A DNA stretch of 64,000 nt from Chloroflexota bacterium (GTDB lineage: Bacteria > Chloroflexota > Dehalococcoidia > Lucifugimonadales > UBA3495), in the NCBI GenBank assembly GCA_028875655.1, contig JAPPCX010000085.1:9887-73886 (forward strand), written 5' to 3'. Made by a program: the position numbers and the translations under genes. Shown one piece after another: positions 3,883 through 36,863 of the stretch (its first letter is position 1; each line of letters begins with the position of its first letter). The notes under the pieces are model-generated. The model saw only the letters and a program-made list of their open reading frames with translations. It did not search any database and was not told the DNA's origin.

Positions 3883-6426
3883 ATGGTAACCGCGACGACC
3901 GCAGCTCCCACCCTGCCGCAACCCGCCGCCGACGACGGTGCCTTCCAGCGGGCTGGGTCTTGGCTGGGCCAGCGTTCGCTCTTGCTGGCCTATGTCCTCC
4001 GGCCTCCCGACGGTTGGATCGCCGCCGGCCTGCTGGCGCTCAACATGGTCATCGTCGTGTGGTCGGTGGAGGTAGCGGATTGGGCGCCGACTCCCCCGCT
4101 GGTGCTGGTGATCCTGCTCGCCGTGTTGACCGCCCTGGTGCTCACTCGTGTGCGGCTATGGGCGGCCGCGTTGATACCCGTCGGTTTGCTGATCGGCGCG
4201 GGCGTCGTAATCTGGCAGATGACCGCCGCCCCACCGGAGGAACTGCGAATCGCTTCAACGCCGGAATTCTTCGAGCGTCTCGGCGACTGGATCCGGGCCG
4301 CGCGCACCGAGGGAATCAGCGTCGATCCGCTCCCCTTCGCCGTTGGCCTGATGATTGCTTCCTGGCTGTCTGGGTTCTTCGCCGGTTGGGTATTCTTCCG
4401 GTATCGCAACTTCTGGGGAGTCTTCGCCCTCGGGTCTCTGGGCATCCTGTCCAACCTCACCTTCCTCCCGGAAAACGCCAGCGTTTACCTGGGGATCTAT
4501 CTGTTCACCGGCCTGTTGCTGGTCGGTTGGGTTCAGTCCGTCCGGGCCAGACAGCGCTGGGACCGGGAGCGCCACGTGTACGACGGACACCTGGGTCTCC
4601 TCACCGCCAGCGACACGACGCTGGTGGCATTCGTGGCGTTGCTCATCGCCTTCCTGATTCCGGTCGGCGGGCAATGGGGTCCGGCCAACTCCGTGTATAA
4701 CTTCACGCGCTCGCCCCTGATCCACTGGGAAGAGGATTTCAACCGTCTCTTCGCCGGCCTGCCGGCCCGACGGCCCCTGCCCTATCGCATTTGGGGAGAC
4801 ACCATGGCCTTCCAGGGCACCATCAATCCCACCAATACCCCGGTGCTCCAGGTCAACTCGTCGGTGCCCCTCTACTGGAAAGCCCGCTCCTACCCCACCT
4901 ACACCCACGAAGGCTGGCTGTCAGAAGGCACGGTACTCAAAGAACCGGGCTGGAAACCCGACTACAGCGCGCCCAGCCCTGAGCAGGAGCGCTTCAACGT
5001 AACCTTTGAAGTCATCCCCAAGTATGACAGCCGCAGCCTGTTCGCCGGCGGGCAAACCGTAGGCGCCAACCGCGACATCCGCATCGAAACGTTCGACTCG
5101 CCCCGCTACGTTATCGACCCGCACTTGGACGGCTCCACCGACGATCTGCCGTCCGCCTTGCGCCAGGCCGTCGCCGGCGTCCGCCATGAGGTCGCCACCG
5201 ACCCCTACGTGTCCGACGATGCCATCGTATCCGCCATTCCCGGCGTGTTCAAGCTGGAGTCGGTGGAACGGGAAGCTGACGGCCGGGTTGTCAACGCCGT
5301 GATCGCTGAAATCATCCCCTCCGAACCGGATGTGCTGGCGGTGCGCGCCGCCGGCGGCAACGCCGCCTCGGGAGACCCATACCAGCTGACCGCCTCGGTG
5401 TCGTCAGCCAGTCCCGACGACCTGCGCCTGGCCGGCCAGGAATACCCCACCTGGGCCTGGATTCGCTACACCCAACTGCCGGAGGATATGCCGCCTCGCG
5501 TCGCCGAATTGGCCCGGGAAATCACCGCTGATGCCAATACACCCTACGACAAGGCCAAAGCGGTCGAAGCGTGGCTGAAGGACAACATCACCTACAACCT
5601 CGCCATCGATCCCCCTCCCTTCGGCGCCGACGGTGTCGATCACTTCCTCTTCGATAGTCGGGAGGGCTACAGCGAGTATTTCGGTTCGGCAATGACCGTC
5701 CTGATGCGCAGCGTGGACATACCCGCGCGGATGACCACCGGCTACACCACCGGCAACCTAATCGACGGCTCGAACCTGTACCTGGTGTCCGACCGCCATA
5801 GCCATGGTTGGGCCGAAGTCTATTTCCCCGGCTACGGCTGGATACCCTTTGAGCCTACCCCCGGCCGGGAAATTCCGGTGGTGATTCCGCCGGAAGAGCA
5901 AGCGGCGATGGCCGCGCTCAGGACCAACTCCGACGGCTCCGGCGACCTGCCCTGCGAAATCGAGGAGGACTGCGAAGAGGCCGACATCTCATTGAGCGCC
6001 GACGACATACCTGTGCCCGAAGACCGAACGACCCTGCTGTGGAACGCCGTCCGCGCCGCGCTGCCCTGGGTCATCGCGATTGGCGCCGTCCTCATGATCC
6101 TGGCGGTTTCCGCGTGGACCGTCTGGCGCTGGTTGTTGGCAACCCCGGCCAATGCCGCCTCAACCTACCGGCGTTTGCGACGGCTGGGCCGCTTCGCCTC
6201 GTTGGCTCCGGCGCAACATCAGACTCCGCACCAGTGGGCCGCAACGGTTCTGCAGGCTCTGCCCGAGCAGCGCGCAGAAGTGCTGCGCATCGTTGATGCC
6301 TACGTTCTCAGCACATATTCGGGGCGCGCATCCGATGAATCGTCGGCCTGCAACCACGTCGCGGACGCCTGGCGCTCCGTCCGCTTGCCCCTGCTGTGGT
6401 ATGCTCTGCGCCGCCGCGAAGCGTAG
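3883..6426 (+). CDS. TgpA-like membrane transglutaminase-core protein with a C-terminal DUF4129-like region
   Basis: Multi-TM N-terminus and a core reading EGYSEYFGSAMTVLMRSVDIPARMTTGY...SHGWAEVYFPGYGWIPFEPT. The track ORF starts at 3250 but overlaps DUF58, so the ATG at 3883, just after the DUF58 stop, is chosen. Confidence 0.85.
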   Translation: MVTATTAAPTLPQPAADDGAFQRAGSWLGQRSLLLAYVLRPPDGWIAAGLLALNMVIVVWSVEVADWAPTPPLVLVILLAVLTALVLTRVRLWAAALIPVGLLIGAGVVIWQMTAAPPEELRIASTPEFFERLGDWIRAARTEGISVDPLPFAVGLMIASWLSGFFAGWVFFRYRNFWGVFALGSLGILSNLTFLPENASVYLGIYLFTGLLLVGWVQSVRARQRWDRERHVYDGHLGLLTASDTTLVAFVALLIAFLIPVGGQWGPANSVYNFTRSPLIHWEEDFNRLFAGLPARRPLPYRIWGDTMAFQGTINPTNTPVLQVNSSVPLYWKARSYPTYTHEGWLSEGTVLKEPGWKPDYSAPSPEQERFNVTFEVIPKYDSRSLFAGGQTVGANRDIRIETFDSPRYVIDPHLDGSTDDLPSALRQAVAGVRHEVATDPYVSDDAIVSAIPGVFKLESVEREADGRVVNAVIAEIIPSEPDVLAVRAAGGNAASGDPYQLTASVSSASPDDLRLAGQEYPTWAWIRYTQLPEDMPPRVAELAREITADANTPYDKAKAVEAWLKDNITYNLAIDPPPFGADGVDHFLFDSREGYSEYFGSAMTVLMRSVDIPARMTTGYTTGNLIDGSNLYLVSDRHSHGWAEVYFPGYGWIPFEPTPGREIPVVIPPEEQAAMAALRTNSDGSGDLPCEIEEDCEEADISLSADDIPVPEDRTTLLWNAVRAALPWVIAIGAVLMILAVSAWTVWRWLLATPANAASTYRRLRRLGRFASLAPAQHQTPHQWAATVLQALPEQRAEVLRIVDAYVLSTYSGRASDESSACNHVADAWRSVRLPLLWYALRRREA

Positions 6427-30832: not shown

Positions 30833-30871
30833 GCTGTCACCGGCCACGCTCAAAGCGTGTCTCGGTAATGT

Positions 30872-31534
30872 TCACGGGGTTCCCCTCTGCGGTGAGTGTA
30901 AGCCGCAGCAACTGGAACCCCGTTCCGTACTGTTGTTACCATCGCTACGATCCTTCAATAGCCGCCAACTGATAAGGCACAAACAGCCATAGAGGATCCC
31001 CTCTGCGAAACGTTGCAGCAAACCTCGCCATTGAGCGAAGTCAGGTACCAACGCAAATGAGTAGAGCGTAATAAAGGTTGCGGCCAACACCAACCAGGCC
31101 ACTCGCCGTACTGCCGAGAGTCTGCTGTTGCAGGACAGCAAAACCAACCCGAGCGTGGTCATGACGAGCGTGATTGCGGACAGGAAATTGTGCGCATTCT
31201 GGGTAAAACTGCCCATCGTAGGACACCCCAAATCGCAGGGCGCAAAAGCCGAGCCAGCATAGGCCACCGGTTCAGCAATAAGCAACCAACAGCCGACTTT
31301 ACTGATACCGTTCAATCTTGCGCGTGGCGCGACCGCCAGCAGCAACAAGAGGCCGAGCAAACCCAAGGGGAGAAACCCCAGGTAGCCTATCTGCCAACTC
31401 CAGTCCGAACCAGTAGCATTGAGCTCGCTGATGTATTGGCTAACGTGGCTGTATTCAGCCTTCAGCGCCGCGCCGCCAAAAAGCACAAAAGGATAGTAAA
31501 CGGCAAGACCGACGATGAGCCAGCGCCAACTCAT
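30872..31534 (-). CDS. DUF998-like integral membrane protein
   Basis: Six predicted TM helices and the EYSHVSQYISELNATGS motif. The start overlaps the Uma2 stop by 1 nt (TGATG). Confidence 0.6.
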   Translation of the reverse strand: MSWRWLIVGLAVYYPFVLFGGAALKAEYSHVSQYISELNATGSDWSWQIGYLGFLPLGLLGLLLLLAVAPRARLNGISKVGCWLLIAEPVAYAGSAFAPCDLGCPTMGSFTQNAHNFLSAITLVMTTLGLVLLSCNSRLSAVRRVAWLVLAATFITLYSFALVPDFAQWRGLLQRFAEGILYGCLCLISWRLLKDRSDGNNSTERGSSCCGLHSPQRGTP

Positions 31535-32214
31535 CAGCCAACGGCCGGAATAAAGTCGGCCACCGCCAGCACAGCGTCGGGGAACGCCTGCGGACTTATA
31601 GCGCCGTCCAGCGGAACAACGCGGACGTTGGCGTAGGCCGTCCCTTCAGGCTCAGTGTTGACCACCAACTCCCCGGTCCGCAGGTTGGCAACCCACACTT
31701 CCGGTATTCCGGCAGCGGCGTAGCGGGCCAACTTTTCGCCCAAGTCAAACTCCAGCGAACTGTCGGCAACTTCAACCAGCAAATACACGTCGGACGGCAG
31801 AACCGGCCCGATCTCGTTGATGGAACCTCGCCGAATGACGGCGATGTCCGGCTGGGGTGCGCTGACGTCGTCCAGCTGGATGGAACCCTGCACACGAACC
31901 ATAGCCCTATCTCCCAGGGCAACGCGCATCAGGTCAGCCAACCAGTCAACGCTGTTCAGGTGTCGGTTGCCAATGGGCACCATTTGGATTATCACTCCGT
32001 CCAGCAGTTCAACACGTTCTTCTTTCGCCAAAATGCCGGCGGCACCCAGGGCCAAGTACTCGTCCACCGTGAAACGCCGGCTTGCATCCTCCGGCACAAT
32101 CCCGCAAGCGACCATCGCCTCCCTCTCGGCGGCGTTGAATTGGCGTAGCGCCCGGGTATGCGTCGTTGTCATGACGTTCTCCAGAGATGCAGGCGATGAA
32201 CGGGCCAACGGCAT
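31534..32214 (-). CDS. Uma2-family (DUF820) putative endonuclease
   Basis: FTVDEYLALGAAGILAKEERVELLDGVIIQMVPIGNRH ... PDIAVI ... LLVEVADSS matches the Uma2 PD-(D/E)XK-like pattern. Confidence 0.8.
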   Translation of the reverse strand: MPLARSSPASLENVMTTTHTRALRQFNAAEREAMVACGIVPEDASRRFTVDEYLALGAAGILAKEERVELLDGVIIQMVPIGNRHLNSVDWLADLMRVALGDRAMVRVQGSIQLDDVSAPQPDIAVIRRGSINEIGPVLPSDVYLLVEVADSSLEFDLGEKLARYAAAGIPEVWVANLRTGELVVNTEPEGTAYANVRVVPLDGAISPQAFPDAVLAVADFIPAVG

Positions 32215-32308
32215 TGTACCATCGACGTAGCTCGGTTACGGGACTTACCAGGCAATGAGCGCATTGTGCTAAACTACGGCCATCACCACTCCACGGAGTA
32301 TTGACGCC

Positions 32309-33436
32309 ATGACTACAACTACCAAAGACCCCATCCTCGTCGTCATCCAGCTGACGGGCGGCAACGACTACCTTAACACCGTCATTCCTTACGACGACGG
32401 CCGCTACCACGACAGCCGGCCCACCGTCGGCATCCACGCCGACCGGGCGCTGCCCATCGACGATACCTACGGGTTTAATCCGGCCCTGCCGGAGATCAAG
32501 GCCCTGTACGACGCCGGCAAGGTCGCAGTCATCAACGGCGTTGGCTACCCGACGCCCAACCGTTCCCATTTCCGCAGCATGGACATCTGGCATACCTGCG
32601 AACCGGAAAAGGTAGGCACTGAGGGGTGGCTGGGCCGCGTCATACGCGACATCGACCCGCACGCCGAGAACGTGCTAACCGGAGTGAACTTCGGCCGCGG
32701 CCTGCCTCGGGCCATGGCCCTTTCCGGTGTGCCCGTGGCCTCAGTGGCCGTGCTGGAGACCTACGGCGTCCTCACCGGAATCCAGGGCGAGCCGGAACGC
32801 GGACAGGCTCTCGACATCTTCGCCCGCATGTATTCGCCCACCGTCGGCCTGGGGGCGACTATGGACTACCTGGGTCAGACGGGACTCGATGCCCTCAAGG
32901 GCGCTGACATACTCAAGGCCGCCCCCGACATGTACACGTCGTCCGTGGAGTACGCCGACACCGGCATCGCGAAGAACCTCCAGGGCATCGCCAAGGTGCT
33001 TACCGCCAATCTGGGCACGCGCGTCTTCTACACGCAGCAGGGCGGCTACGACACCCACGCCAGCGAGGCCGACGTCCATCCCAAGCTGCTGGGCGACCTG
33101 AGCCGCGCCGTCAGCGACTTCTACGCCGACCTGCGCGAACACGACGCCGCCGACAACGTGGTGATGTTCGCCTTCACCGAGTTTGGCCGGCGCGTCAAGG
33201 ACAACGGCAGCGGCACTGACCACGGCAGCGGGGGCGTGGCCTTCGCCATCGGCGACCCGGTGCGTGGCGGCATGTATGGCGCCTACCCGTCCCTGGCCGA
33301 GGGCGATCTCGTCGAGGGCGACCTCGCGTTCAACACTGACTTTCGCGGCGTGTACGGCACCCTGGTGGAGCAGTGGCTCGGTCTGGACGCCAAGCCGGTG
33401 GTGGGCGGGAGTTTCGAGCAGCCGGAGTTCGTGTAG
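32309..33436 (+). CDS. DUF1501 domain protein (sulfatase-superfamily)
   Basis: ILVVIQLTGGNDYLNTVIPY and GSGTDHGSGG motifs. No obvious Tat or Sec signal at this start. Confidence 0.85.
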   Translation: MTTTTKDPILVVIQLTGGNDYLNTVIPYDDGRYHDSRPTVGIHADRALPIDDTYGFNPALPEIKALYDAGKVAVINGVGYPTPNRSHFRSMDIWHTCEPEKVGTEGWLGRVIRDIDPHAENVLTGVNFGRGLPRAMALSGVPVASVAVLETYGVLTGIQGEPERGQALDIFARMYSPTVGLGATMDYLGQTGLDALKGADILKAAPDMYTSSVEYADTGIAKNLQGIAKVLTANLGTRVFYTQQGGYDTHASEADVHPKLLGDLSRAVSDFYADLREHDAADNVVMFAFTEFGRRVKDNGSGTDHGSGGVAFAIGDPVRGGMYGAYPSLAEGDLVEGDLAFNTDFRGVYGTLVEQWLGLDAKPVVGGSFEQPEFV

Positions 33437-33446
33437 GGTGGTTGTA

Positions 33447-34616
33447 ATGAGGTCCGACACCAACGGCAACCATCTCGCCGCGCCATCACCCGGCGCGGCT
33501 ATCTATGTTGATACGGAGAACCTACCTGCGGGATTCCGACCACGCGCAGAACATCGTCGCTCAGATCATCGCAGACTGGCCCGGCCCCCTCCCATTGGGC
33601 AGCGTATCTCTATACGTGCGGGCCGACAAAGTCGCGGTATGGGAAATGTGGGCCGAATCGTCGTACCCAGATTTGCGGGTACGAGTGCGCGGCGTCCAGC
33701 ACTTCAGCAACCACAAGGCCAAGAATTCAGCGGACCTGGCCATCACCGCCGACGCCGTGGCCGACCTGGTCACCGGCCAAGCCGCAGCCGTCGCCGTGGT
33801 CAGCAACGATAGCGACTTCGGCGCGCTGTTCGTGAAGATAAAAGAAATGGCACACTCCGCCGGCCTGGAGGACACGCCGTTCCTCTGGATCACATCCCCA
33901 GACGCCGGGGCGCTGTCGCCGGAAATGGAGCGGTTCATCCCCGACGGGATGCGCTGGGACTTGTCCGCCGCCCTCCCTACGCCGGCTGCTGAGGTGGTTC
34001 ATCCGGAACCTCAGCCATTGCCCAAGCCGGTCCAGCCGGCTGCGCTGGCCTCGGCCTCCGCCTTCGGCAAGTCCGACACGGATAACGAAGCCATTGCCGA
34101 GGAGTTGATACGGCAATTGCCTGTCGGCAGGTTCAAAGCGGCCGACGCGCAGAAAATCGTCAAAAAGCGTTGGTCAAAACACCCGGCGGCCTCCGGCGAC
34201 ACGGCCCAGTTTGGACAGTTCCTGGGTAAAGAAGTCTGGCCGGCCCTGAAAGAGCGCGGCGTAACCATGCCCGGCAGAAGCTCACCGCGCACCTACGAAA
34301 TCACTCAGGCCGCCAAGGAATCCATCGCCAAACCGCAGCCCCAATCCGCAAGCCAGAGCAAAGCGAACGCTGACTCCACTCCGTCGCCACTGGCATCACT
34401 GACGACCTGTTCAAAGCGTCCGATGCTCAGAATGCCCTGAAACAACTCCAGCCCCAACATCCGGCCGCGTCCTACACTGCCGCGCAGTTCGGCACGTGGT
34501 TCGCCCGGCAACTCTGGCCAGTCATGGAACAGCATGGTGTCGTCCTGGCCAACGACAAGCCACGCCGCTACGAAATGACCCCCGACGCGCGGCATCGCCT
34601 CACCGAGTTGGGCTAG
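33447..34616 (+). pseudogene. NYN-domain (LabA-like) gene with two apparent frameshifts and a duplicated C-terminal domain
   Basis: The NYN N-terminus AAIYVDTENL is in the frame of ATG 33447. The rest of the NYN domain (NSADLAITADAVADL...VVSNDSDFGALFVKIKEM) is in the +1 frame (track ORF 33505-34440). A second copy of the C-terminal domain is back in the first frame, up to the TAG at 34614-34616. Confidence 0.6.
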
Positions 34617-34631
34617 CGCACGCTTTCCGGC

Positions 34632-34654
34632 GATTCCCGCTTTCGCTGGAATCC
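34632..34654. repeat. Degenerate family A repeat copy (GATTCCCGCTTTCGCTGGAATCC)
   Basis: Hairpin core of family A without the GTCATT extension, in an intergenic region. Confidence 0.7.
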
Positions 34655-34769: not shown

Positions 34770-36197
34770 ATGCTCATCAAAAGTACCCCCGACCGCTACG
34801 ACAAGCTGCAAATCCTCGGCGGCATGGCTGCCTCCGACGACATCCTAACCGCCGGCAAAGCCGACCGCGGCGGCCACTCCCTCAGCGGCAAGTTCGCCGC
34901 CGGTTCCATCGGGAGCGGCAGAAACCGCGTCGCCTACTCCGACCCGCGCAAGAACCCCGCGCCGGGCATCTACAAGGCCAGCCTGCCCAACGGCAAGAAG
35001 ATCAACCTGATGCGGGTCATGTTCACTGATTTCTGCAAGATGGACTGCGCCTACTGCCCCAACAGCATCTACGTGCCGCGCAAACGCTACGCCTTCAAGC
35101 GCGAGGAACTGGCCGATACCTTCGCGGAACTGCACCAACGCCTGGCCGTGGACGGCCTGTTCCTCAGCTCCGGCATCGCAGGCGACGGGACGAAGACCAC
35201 CCAGCGCATGGTGGAAACCGTCGAGATCATCCGCAAAAAGCACGGCTTCAGGGGCTACATCCACCTCAAGGTCATGCCCGGCGCATCCCGTGAACTCGTC
35301 GAACGCGCCCACCGGCTCGGCAGCCGCCTGTCCGTCAACATCGAAACGCCGGAACCCGACATGATGCGCCGCATCAGCCCCCACAAGGACTTGCAGAAAG
35401 ACATCCTGGACCCCATGGCCTGGATCAACGACCTGACCCGCGAAACCAGCGGCGGCGCGGTGGGGCAGGCAACGCAGTTCGTAGTCGGCGCGGCCGACGA
35501 GTCCGACCGCCAGATCTACCACCGCGTTGACCAGATGTACACCGACTGGAACCTCAAGCGCGTCTATTACCCGCCCTTCCGTCCGGCTCGGCACACGCCC
35601 ATGGAGGAAAAGCCACCGGTCCACGCCGGCCGCGAGCATCGCCTCTACCAGATGGACTGGTTACGCCGGGTCTATAACTTCGCCTCATATGAGATAGATC
35701 TCGCCTTCGACCACGGCGGTTTCCTCTCCCTGGAGCAGGATCCCAAGACGGTCATCGCCATGGAGAACCTGGACGCCTTCCCCATCGACCTGAACGCCGC
35801 CAGCCGGGACCAGTTGCTGCGGATCCCCGGCATCGGGCCAGTGTCCGCCGGCCGCATCCTGGAGAACCGCCGTCGGCACAGCATCGACAACTGGCGCGAT
35901 TTGCAGGCCATGGGCGTGGTCCGCAAGCGGGCCTGGCCTTACGTGGTGTTCCCCGGACAGCGTCCGCCCTCGGGCAAGCAGTTGCGCCTGGACCTGTTCG
36001 GCGAGGCCAGCGACCGCCGCGCCGCGGAGGCCGCTGGCGTTACACTGCCACCGCCCAAGTCGGGAAAGCTGTCCAGCATCATGGAACCCCCGGCGACGTA
36101 CAACGCCGGGGGAACATACGACGGTCACGAGTGCATCCCCGGCAGCCGTGGGGCGATGTGCGCGGGGTGCCCCATCAACCCGGCGTCGGCTTCCTGA
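34770..36197 (+). CDS. Radical SAM protein with a C-terminal helix-hairpin-helix (putative DNA modification/repair radical SAM family)
   Basis: CxxxCxxC motif FCKMDCAYCPNS, plus HhH LNAASRDQLLRIPGIGPVSAGRILENRR. The overall layout resembles TIGR03916-type proteins. Confidence 0.8.
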   Translation: MLIKSTPDRYDKLQILGGMAASDDILTAGKADRGGHSLSGKFAAGSIGSGRNRVAYSDPRKNPAPGIYKASLPNGKKINLMRVMFTDFCKMDCAYCPNSIYVPRKRYAFKREELADTFAELHQRLAVDGLFLSSGIAGDGTKTTQRMVETVEIIRKKHGFRGYIHLKVMPGASRELVERAHRLGSRLSVNIETPEPDMMRRISPHKDLQKDILDPMAWINDLTRETSGGAVGQATQFVVGAADESDRQIYHRVDQMYTDWNLKRVYYPPFRPARHTPMEEKPPVHAGREHRLYQMDWLRRVYNFASYEIDLAFDHGGFLSLEQDPKTVIAMENLDAFPIDLNAASRDQLLRIPGIGPVSAGRILENRRRHSIDNWRDLQAMGVVRKRAWPYVVFPGQRPPSGKQLRLDLFGEASDRRAAEAAGVTLPPPKSGKLSSIMEPPATYNAGGTYDGHECIPGSRGAMCAGCPINPASAS

Positions 36198-36232
36198 TAC
36201 CGGTTGCCCGGTGCGCTAGTACCGGGCATCAT

Positions 36233-36742
36233 CTACCCCGCCTCCAAGTCGTCCGACGGTATCTCGTACCAATAGAGCCGCTCCGATTCCACGGATTCTT
36301 TCAGATTCCAGTCGTACCGGACGCCGGCGACTGCTGCCGTTGCCGGCAGGCCGGTGAAGCGTGTCATCAATTCGGCATTACGCAGGGCGCGGCGTGAATC
36401 TCGGCCGTTCACGGTGAAGGACGCTTCTACGGCAATGTAATGCGGGTTGCCCTCGCCGTCGGCAACCTGCATCACCAGGTCGGCGCGATGGAAACTTCTC
36501 AAGTCGTTGCGGGTAAGGTCAGAAACATCATGCTACTCGGTCGGCCGACGCAAGTCGGCCGGTACCAGAGATTTCTCCCACACAATGCCCATCTCGCGAG
36601 CAATCAGGTCCGCCTCATTGCGCACAATGTCGTAAACCCTGCGGCCTATTATCCAGGTCAAGTCTTCCTGCATCCGGACTAGATTCGCCTCCATCTGGGC
36701 GCAAATTTCGGATAGCAGTACCCTGGTGTTCTCGATAGTCAT
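36233..36742 (-). pseudogene. Hypothetical gene (coiled-coil N-terminus plus a PD-(D/E)XK-like C-terminus) interrupted by an in-frame TAG
   Basis: Track ORFs 36533-36742 and 36233-36502 are in the same frame and separated only by the TAG at 36533-36535. Read-through gives ...ADLRRPTE*HDVSDLTRNDLRSFHRADLVMQV...YIAVEASFT. Confidence 0.5.
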
Positions 36743-36863
36743 AGATGCCCCTCAGTCGCTATCTGAATTATAGCAGCGCGGCTGTTCCGCCTTGTCGCGA
36801 TCTCCCCGTGCTATTATTGCCCCACAACTCCTAATCATCCCGTTCCTGGAGGCCATCTACCCC

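Follow-up and report, generated by a model that had tools for sequence, protein, structure and literature searches.

A conserved NYN-domain gene of a Chloroflexota bacterium, probably broken recently by two frameshift mutations

The NYN-domain gene at 33447-34616 (+) of the window (here, the whole 64,000-nucleotide stretch of Chloroflexota DNA that was analysed) presents its coding signal in three segments whose reading frames alternate. Is this a working gene, an error of assembly, a case of recoding, or a gene in decay? The initial annotation, made from the sequence alone, left decay, assembly errors and recoding side by side; the orthologs, the form of the two lesions and the presence of both in other contigs speak for decay and against the other two. 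We put the probability at roughly 85% that the locus is a pseudogene of recent evolutionary origin, derived from the gene of a conserved NYN-domain nuclease and broken by two independent slippage mutations.

Three reading-frame segments of one ancestral gene

In a three-frame translation of 33447-34640, the frame of the ATG at 33447 opens with MRSDTNGNHLAAPSPGAAIYVDTENL, the +1 frame carries the rest of the NYN domain (…NSADLAITADAVADL…VVSNDSDFGALFVKIKEM) together with the first C-terminal module, and the final ~78 residues (…ITDDLFKASDAQNALKQ…RHRLTELG*) stand in the first frame again, ending at 34616. The closest intact ortholog, P0002, is divided in the same way by tblastn against the window, which returned three collinear matches in alternating frames: residues 1-26 at 33447-33524 (100% identity, E 2.6e-11), residues 26-316 at 33526-34398 in the other frame (E 4e-170), and the C-terminal ~80 residues in a match ending at 34613, back in the first frame (E 4e-46). 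The three matches lie far beyond what chance would produce. Translation and tblastn thus bear out the succession of frames described in the initial annotation, with the N-terminus in the frame of ATG 33447, the remainder in +1 and a return to the original frame.

The ancestral start at 33447 is preceded, at a distance of 5 nt, by a Shine-Dalgarno-like GGGTGG (33436-33441, +; read from the sequence). The N-terminal segment in its frame (33447-33524, +; residues 1-26 by P0002 tblastn) includes strand beta-1 and the family-invariant Y20, D22, E24 and N25. A ribosome initiating here would add 26-27 native residues and then translate out-of-frame sequence to the first stop, at 33810-33812 (+), giving a product of 121 aa. 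The annotated ORF in the +1 frame (33505-34440, +; 311 aa, P0013, OXI54_11155) is a central remnant that starts at a fortuitous ATG and ends at a fortuitous TGA (34438-34440). It contains winged-helix module 1 (34081-34326, +), delimited by the modelled topology H-b-H-H-b-b-H of P0002 residues 212-293 and by hhalign against module 2. Winged-helix module 2 and the ancestral stop lie at 34380-34616 (+) in the frame of ATG 33447, as placed by tblastn and AlphaFold2 (pLDDT 91.4). Since the earliest in-frame start past the stop at 34371 is ATG 34524, which would give merely 30 aa, module 2 cannot be expressed separately.

In dozens of related Chloroflexota genomes the gene is whole. With the repaired protein as query, 262 homologs were found; the best 120 of these are almost all 390-400 aa long, mostly align over 95-100% of the query and contain PF01936, and the sole near-identical match among them is P0013, the 311-aa fragment itself. 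All homologs among those listed are single-frame proteins, and an intact ortholog (~394 aa) spans all three segments of the window. Our scan of species-representative genomes yielded 76 loci. In some 47 Dehalococcoidia genomes the NYN gene occupies one shared chromosomal site: a highly conserved DUF1501 gene precedes it, and in ~28 of these ~47 it is followed by a radical-SAM/HhH gene that is a relative of TIGR03916. At all of the syntenic Dehalococcoidia loci but L051 the match lies in one open frame; L051 was rejected as a broken locus because it consists of two adjacent intact paralogs. The initial annotation had proposed comparing orthologs for a single frame, and had named independent genes with the boundaries 33505-34440 and unconserved ends as the finding that would speak against a split gene. 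The orthologs proved to be single ORFs of ~394 aa, and they conserve both the N-terminal and the C-terminal segment that are out of frame in the window.

Among the loci flagged as not being one open frame, only two look frameshifted: the second copy in a Limisphaerales MAG (OZ241891.1; L081:4001-4788), where the tblastn match switches frame at ~4468-4555, and a locus in an Alphaproteobacteria MAG (L084:4001-4499), where it switches at ~4242. L061, L066 and L079 were rejected as broken loci, as in each of them a single-frame tblastn match overruns the gene end.

The repaired protein matches Pfam PF01936 over residues 17-133 with 36.4 bits (cutoff 24.2, E 8.9e-9), which places it in the NYN family; the 311-aa remnant scores 27.8 bits, at profile positions 62-115 only. 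In the window, the NYN (PIN-like nuclease) domain covers 33495-33960 (+; from PF01936 on the repaired protein and from Foldseek) and is broken by lesion 1 past its first strand. We modelled P0002 with AlphaFold2 from an alignment of 61 homologs (mean pLDDT 75.7), obtaining an NYN domain at residues 17-170, a disordered linker (175-209), module 1 (212-293), a short linker and module 2 (311-393). The NYN region has a pLDDT of about 80-92, with beta-1 at E17-22. Foldseek matched it to 2qip (VPA0982; E 2.2e-4) and to the MARF1 NYN domain 5yaa (E 8.6e-4), both with a probability of 1.00, and the model predicts a PIN-like alpha/beta fold like that of solved NYN structures. D22, E24, N25, D95, D101, D120 and D122 do not vary within the family. 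In the orthologs the conserved acidic active-site set lies in one frame, whereas in the window the 4-nt duplication parts D22, E24 and N25 from the rest. A PDB search with the full-length profile returned nothing at E <= 10, NCBIfam has no family for the intact protein, and PADLOC assigned it to no defence system.

Two indels and a probable recent loss of function

We mapped the lesions against the closest ortholog DNA (L001). Lesion 1 is a 4-nt tandem duplication at 33520-33527 (+) that turns ACCT into ACCTACCT (GAGA-ACCT-ACCT-GCGG in the window, GAGA-ACCT-GCGG in L001), and is supported also by the BLAST gap lists against L001, L006 and L008. It lies directly after the first beta-strand, where it shifts the frame by +1. 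Lesion 2, seen in the same alignment and in the gap list, removed 19 nt between 8-nt direct repeats (TCCGTCGC) and left a junction at 34380-34387 (+). L001 reads C-TCCGTCGC-AACTCGCCGCT-TCCGTCGC-CACTGG here, while the window retains one TCCGTCGC, having lost the other repeat copy plus the 11 nt between the copies. This deletion is situated in the linker preceding the second winged-helix module and shifts the frame by -1. Undoing both lesions, by deleting the surplus ACCT and filling the gap of 19 nt, restores exactly 1185 nt, the length of the gene in the three closest orthologs.

The initial annotation had located the shifts within 33522-33540 and 34374-34400; there are indeed two, and their exact sites are 33520-33527 and the junction 34379/34380. 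Single-base indels (loss of one G of GGG at 33531-33533, gain of a base near 34390) were ruled out by the L001 alignment, which gives +4 and -19. The shifts had also been called compensating. Their signs are opposite, and the net change over the ~860 nt between them is +4 - 19 = -15 nt, but translation from ATG 33447 stops at 33810, before lesion 2 is reached; the compensation is therefore arithmetic only and rescues nothing.

From their form, we infer that both lesions are replication slippage events, and independent ones. A duplicated 4-mer, and a deletion with loss of one direct-repeat copy, are what slippage frameshift pseudogenes show; what is mildly notable here is the presence of two independent lesions in a gene otherwise almost without decay. 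No single-lesion intermediate allele was seen.

The displaced segments suggest that the inactivation is recent. Relative to L006, the N-terminal one has 2 synonymous and 0 nonsynonymous differences and the C-terminal one 14 and 1, and such near-exclusively synonymous change points to purifying selection until recently. Substitutions specific to the window lineage number 1 synonymous to 6 nonsynonymous, against 55 to 37 in sister lineages (Fisher p = 0.04), a comparison that draws on 7 substitutions, located mostly in the disordered linker, within an apparently recombinationally mosaic gene; it hints at relaxed constraint on the window copy. Apart from the two indels the gene is nearly free of decay, which fits a very recent loss and would equally fit a gene still in use. 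The 311-aa ORF is without G16, Y20, D22, E24, N25 and L26, all invariant in the 61 homologs. Since it thereby lacks beta-1 and D22/E24/N25, and has neither module 2 nor the Shine-Dalgarno-like motif, the window copy has presumably lost its nuclease function.

Identity across 33447-34616 is mosaic when the window is compared with L001, L006 and L008. The window is nearly identical to L001 over ~33740-34380 and ~10% divergent at both ends; against L006 and L008 the ends are identical in protein and the inter-module linker (residues ~296-309) is completely different. This pattern suggests recombination between alleles of co-occurring strains.

Could ORF 33505-34440 nevertheless be expressed and maintained as a protein that binds nucleic acid but has no catalytic activity, made of a partial NYN domain and one module? 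The ORF is long, it is an annotated CDS (P0013) with module 1 intact, and single-module homologs occur naturally. However, these natural one-module homologs all have a complete NYN N-terminus, and an NYN domain is unlikely to fold if beta-1, the central strand of the PIN-like fold, and three invariant polar residues are missing. The ORF's last ~20 residues are moreover out-of-frame sequence, and the Shine-Dalgarno-like, purine-rich motif present before ATG 33447 is absent before ATG 33505. We hence consider a retained function of this kind improbable, although the 311-aa ORF might hold some non-catalytic activity via module 1.

An artefact of sequencing or assembly would mean that the genome holds an intact gene and that the indels come from assembler or read errors. 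The window does derive from a metagenome-assembled genome, and lesion 2 lies in a linker that is highly variable between strains, where strain mixtures can confuse assembly graphs. Yet the lesions recur. The exact 311-aa product occurs on six contigs, and in the four that were retrieved (L002-L005) both lesions are present in 4/4. The Logan assembly SRR10996928 is 100% identical to the window across 4.5 kb, an ENA assembly and a GenBank MAG contig have one mismatch each, and the Logan assembly SRR10996931, from a different run, has two mismatches; each contains both lesions. Identical indels in four further contigs, from different assemblers and at least two sequencing runs and 0-2 SNPs from the window, make an assembly error unlikely. 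Nor is their form that of a typical error, as a 4-nt duplication and a 19-nt deletion are unlike homopolymer miscounts (we looked for homopolymers at either lesion and found none), and the 8-nt repeat is much shorter than assembler k-mers. All other indels in a ~23 kb syntenic alignment of the window and L006 either fall between genes or keep the frame (3 or 9 nt, or paired +2/-2). The absence of any further coding frameshift there counts against error-prone sequence, and agrees with the remark in the initial annotation that frameshifts are otherwise missing from the window. We therefore give an artefact very little weight, although the same populations could also contain an intact allele.

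Programmed recoding, in which a +1 shift near 33525 and a -1 shift near 34380 would yield the full-length protein, has hardly anything to recommend it: the shifts are opposite in sign, total a multiple of three and connect segments almost perfectly conserved at the protein level, but neither shift occurs in any ortholog (all are single-frame), simple indels relative to the orthologs account for both, and two independent efficient events would be needed in one gene. The search for slippery heptamers proposed in the initial annotation came up empty at the lesions: 34300-34440 contains no X XXY YYZ heptamer, 33520-33530 contains none of the known +1 motifs, and the first site (AAC CTA CCT GCG) is unlike any known +1 site. 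For the second shift, the usable span amounts to about a dozen bases, after the frame-0 stop at 34371-34373 and before the first helix of the module. Genes with programmed frameshifts (prfB, +1; dnaX and IS elements, -1) likewise show an apparent frame change inside one conserved coding gene. Unlike these, the window's shifts come without ortholog conservation, a slippery sequence or a known in-frame stop or pause context, and they would have to be two and opposite. With no homopolymer or slippery site, and with lesions that the orthologs lack, recoding is very unlikely.

If the locus is indeed a recent pseudogene, the deposited 311-aa "hypothetical protein" OXI54_11155 would be a pseudogene fragment, better flagged than treated as a family member. 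The locus would then be a further case of a gene lost through replication slippage, here in an uncultured lineage of Chloroflexota, and would call for no new mechanism.

The C-terminal winged-helix modules

Aligned with hhalign, modules 1 and 2 match with 99.6% probability (E 3.9e-24, 38% identity, 69 columns). The tandem C-terminal duplication seen in the initial annotation therefore stands as a repeat, but the orthologs share it, so that it is old and no peculiarity of this gene. Module 2 alone was modelled with a winged-helix topology, and among PDB entries it came closest to forkhead, ETS and PadR winged helices, with weak scores throughout (E 0.15-1, TM about 0.5). Each module is thus predicted to fold as a winged helix, the fold class of LOTUS.

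The initial annotation had gone further and guessed an OST-HTH/LOTUS-like domain. OST-HTH domains are winged HTH domains with an insert between helices 2 and 3 that carries a conserved Ghxph motif (PMC2848206). No LOTUS entry is among the top 50 PDB fold matches of module 2, and 0 of 42 module sequences match Pfam OST-HTH (PF12872) at E <= 10. We also compared three module profiles by hhalign with the OST-HTH alignment in the supplement of Anantharaman, Zhang & Aravind (2010; PMC2848206). The positive control, bacterial against eukaryotic OST-HTH, reached 94.4% probability, whereas the module profiles, including one of 95 sequences (Neff 5.3), reached 0.7-2.6%. The modules do have an invariant F-G (F37, G38) before helix 3, and the hhalign path sets this region opposite the OST-HTH YG(y/f)xkL in an alignment that is not significant; the residues after F-G (GTWFA, GQFLG) are unlike Ghxph. 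No sequence relationship to OST-HTH was thus detected, and by the tests run here the module would not count as a member of that family. Two other candidates were dropped, namely DUF7284, a sub-threshold Pfam match on the modules (E 0.04-0.1), and methyltransferases, two non-significant matches from a PDB search with the module profile.

Run against 1.84 billion representative proteins, the module profile gave 111 matches at E <= 1e-3, with one copy per protein in 98, two in 9 and three in 2. All ten of the module carriers that we sampled have an N-terminal NYN domain (9/10 above cutoff), and 0/10 has an OST-HTH match. The module seems to serve NYN nucleases as an accessory domain that has no name yet.

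In architecture, these proteins resemble the LK-nuclease (DUF88/NYN, PF01936) + OST-HTH proteins, such as the bacterial NE0665 and the eukaryotic MARF1/Limkain-b1, in which an N-terminal NYN/PIN-like domain is likewise followed by one or more winged-helix modules. The C-terminal OST-HTH modules of LK-nuclease proteins are predicted to bind RNA, and the bacterial proteins are described as standalone RNA-degradation enzymes without conserved RNA-system neighbours (PMC2848206). Similarly, no RNA-system neighbour was seen at the window locus. The differences are that the modules here have no detectable OST-HTH sequence relationship, that the module family is tiny, and that the window copy is inactivated. 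By analogy, we infer that the module probably acts much as OST-HTH does and keeps the nuclease bound to nucleic acid.

Shorter homologs of ~265-285 aa, with an NYN domain and a single module, were found in unrelated gene contexts at loci L056-L079, in Limisphaerales, Pseudomonadales/Gammaproteobacteria, Ca. Poriferihabitaceae, Defluviicoccus and other Dehalococcoidia MAGs. Many of the record names suggest sponge metagenomes, and this distribution would fit horizontal spread among sponge symbionts. These MAGs are probably of sponge origin, going by record names such as Ca. Poriferihabitaceae and by the MAG series to which they belong. Tentatively, the ~80-aa module may be an undescribed winged-helix family distinct from OST-HTH/LOTUS, fused only to NYN domains (in 1-3 copies) and concentrated in probably sponge-associated bacteria of several phyla, the groups by record name being Dehalococcoidia/SAR202, Limisphaerales, Pseudomonadales, Ca. 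Poriferihabitaceae and Defluviicoccus. If so, symbionts might share this RNA nuclease through horizontal transfer and in connection with their symbiosis, and one of their lineages would only lately have lost it. Public data contain few examples of the module, and a formal description as a domain family could be worthwhile.

Gene neighbourhood

Two variable islands, at 30846-32258 and 36185-36847, flank the conserved block of DUF1501, NYN and radical-SAM genes. A pair of genes at ~30.9-32.2 kb, encoding a DUF998 protein and a Uma2 protein (putative restriction endonuclease), is also found in L001 and is missing from L006 and L008. On the other side, a segment of ~660 nt holds two small minus-strand ORFs, 36233-36472 (79 aa) and 36533-36742 (69 aa), neither with a Pfam match; at its place L001 has a Fic gene and L006 has nothing.

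Within the block, 10 nt separate the DUF1501 and NYN genes in the window, and up to about 3 kb elsewhere (loci L009-L055). In L001, an additional gene for a 145-aa Asp_protease_2-like protein lies between the two (L001:2895-3332). The downstream gene (34770-36197, +) encodes a radical-SAM protein with a C-terminal helix-hairpin-helix, which scores 283.9 bits against TIGR03916 ("putative DNA modification/repair radical SAM protein"), below the cutoff of 343.5. The radical-SAM gene is absent from the fetched 4-kb flank in about 19 of the ~47 syntenic genomes. The three proteins also differ in rate: the NYN protein evolves much faster (about 50-83% identity) than its neighbours, the DUF1501 protein (87-98%) and the radical-SAM protein (75-96%).
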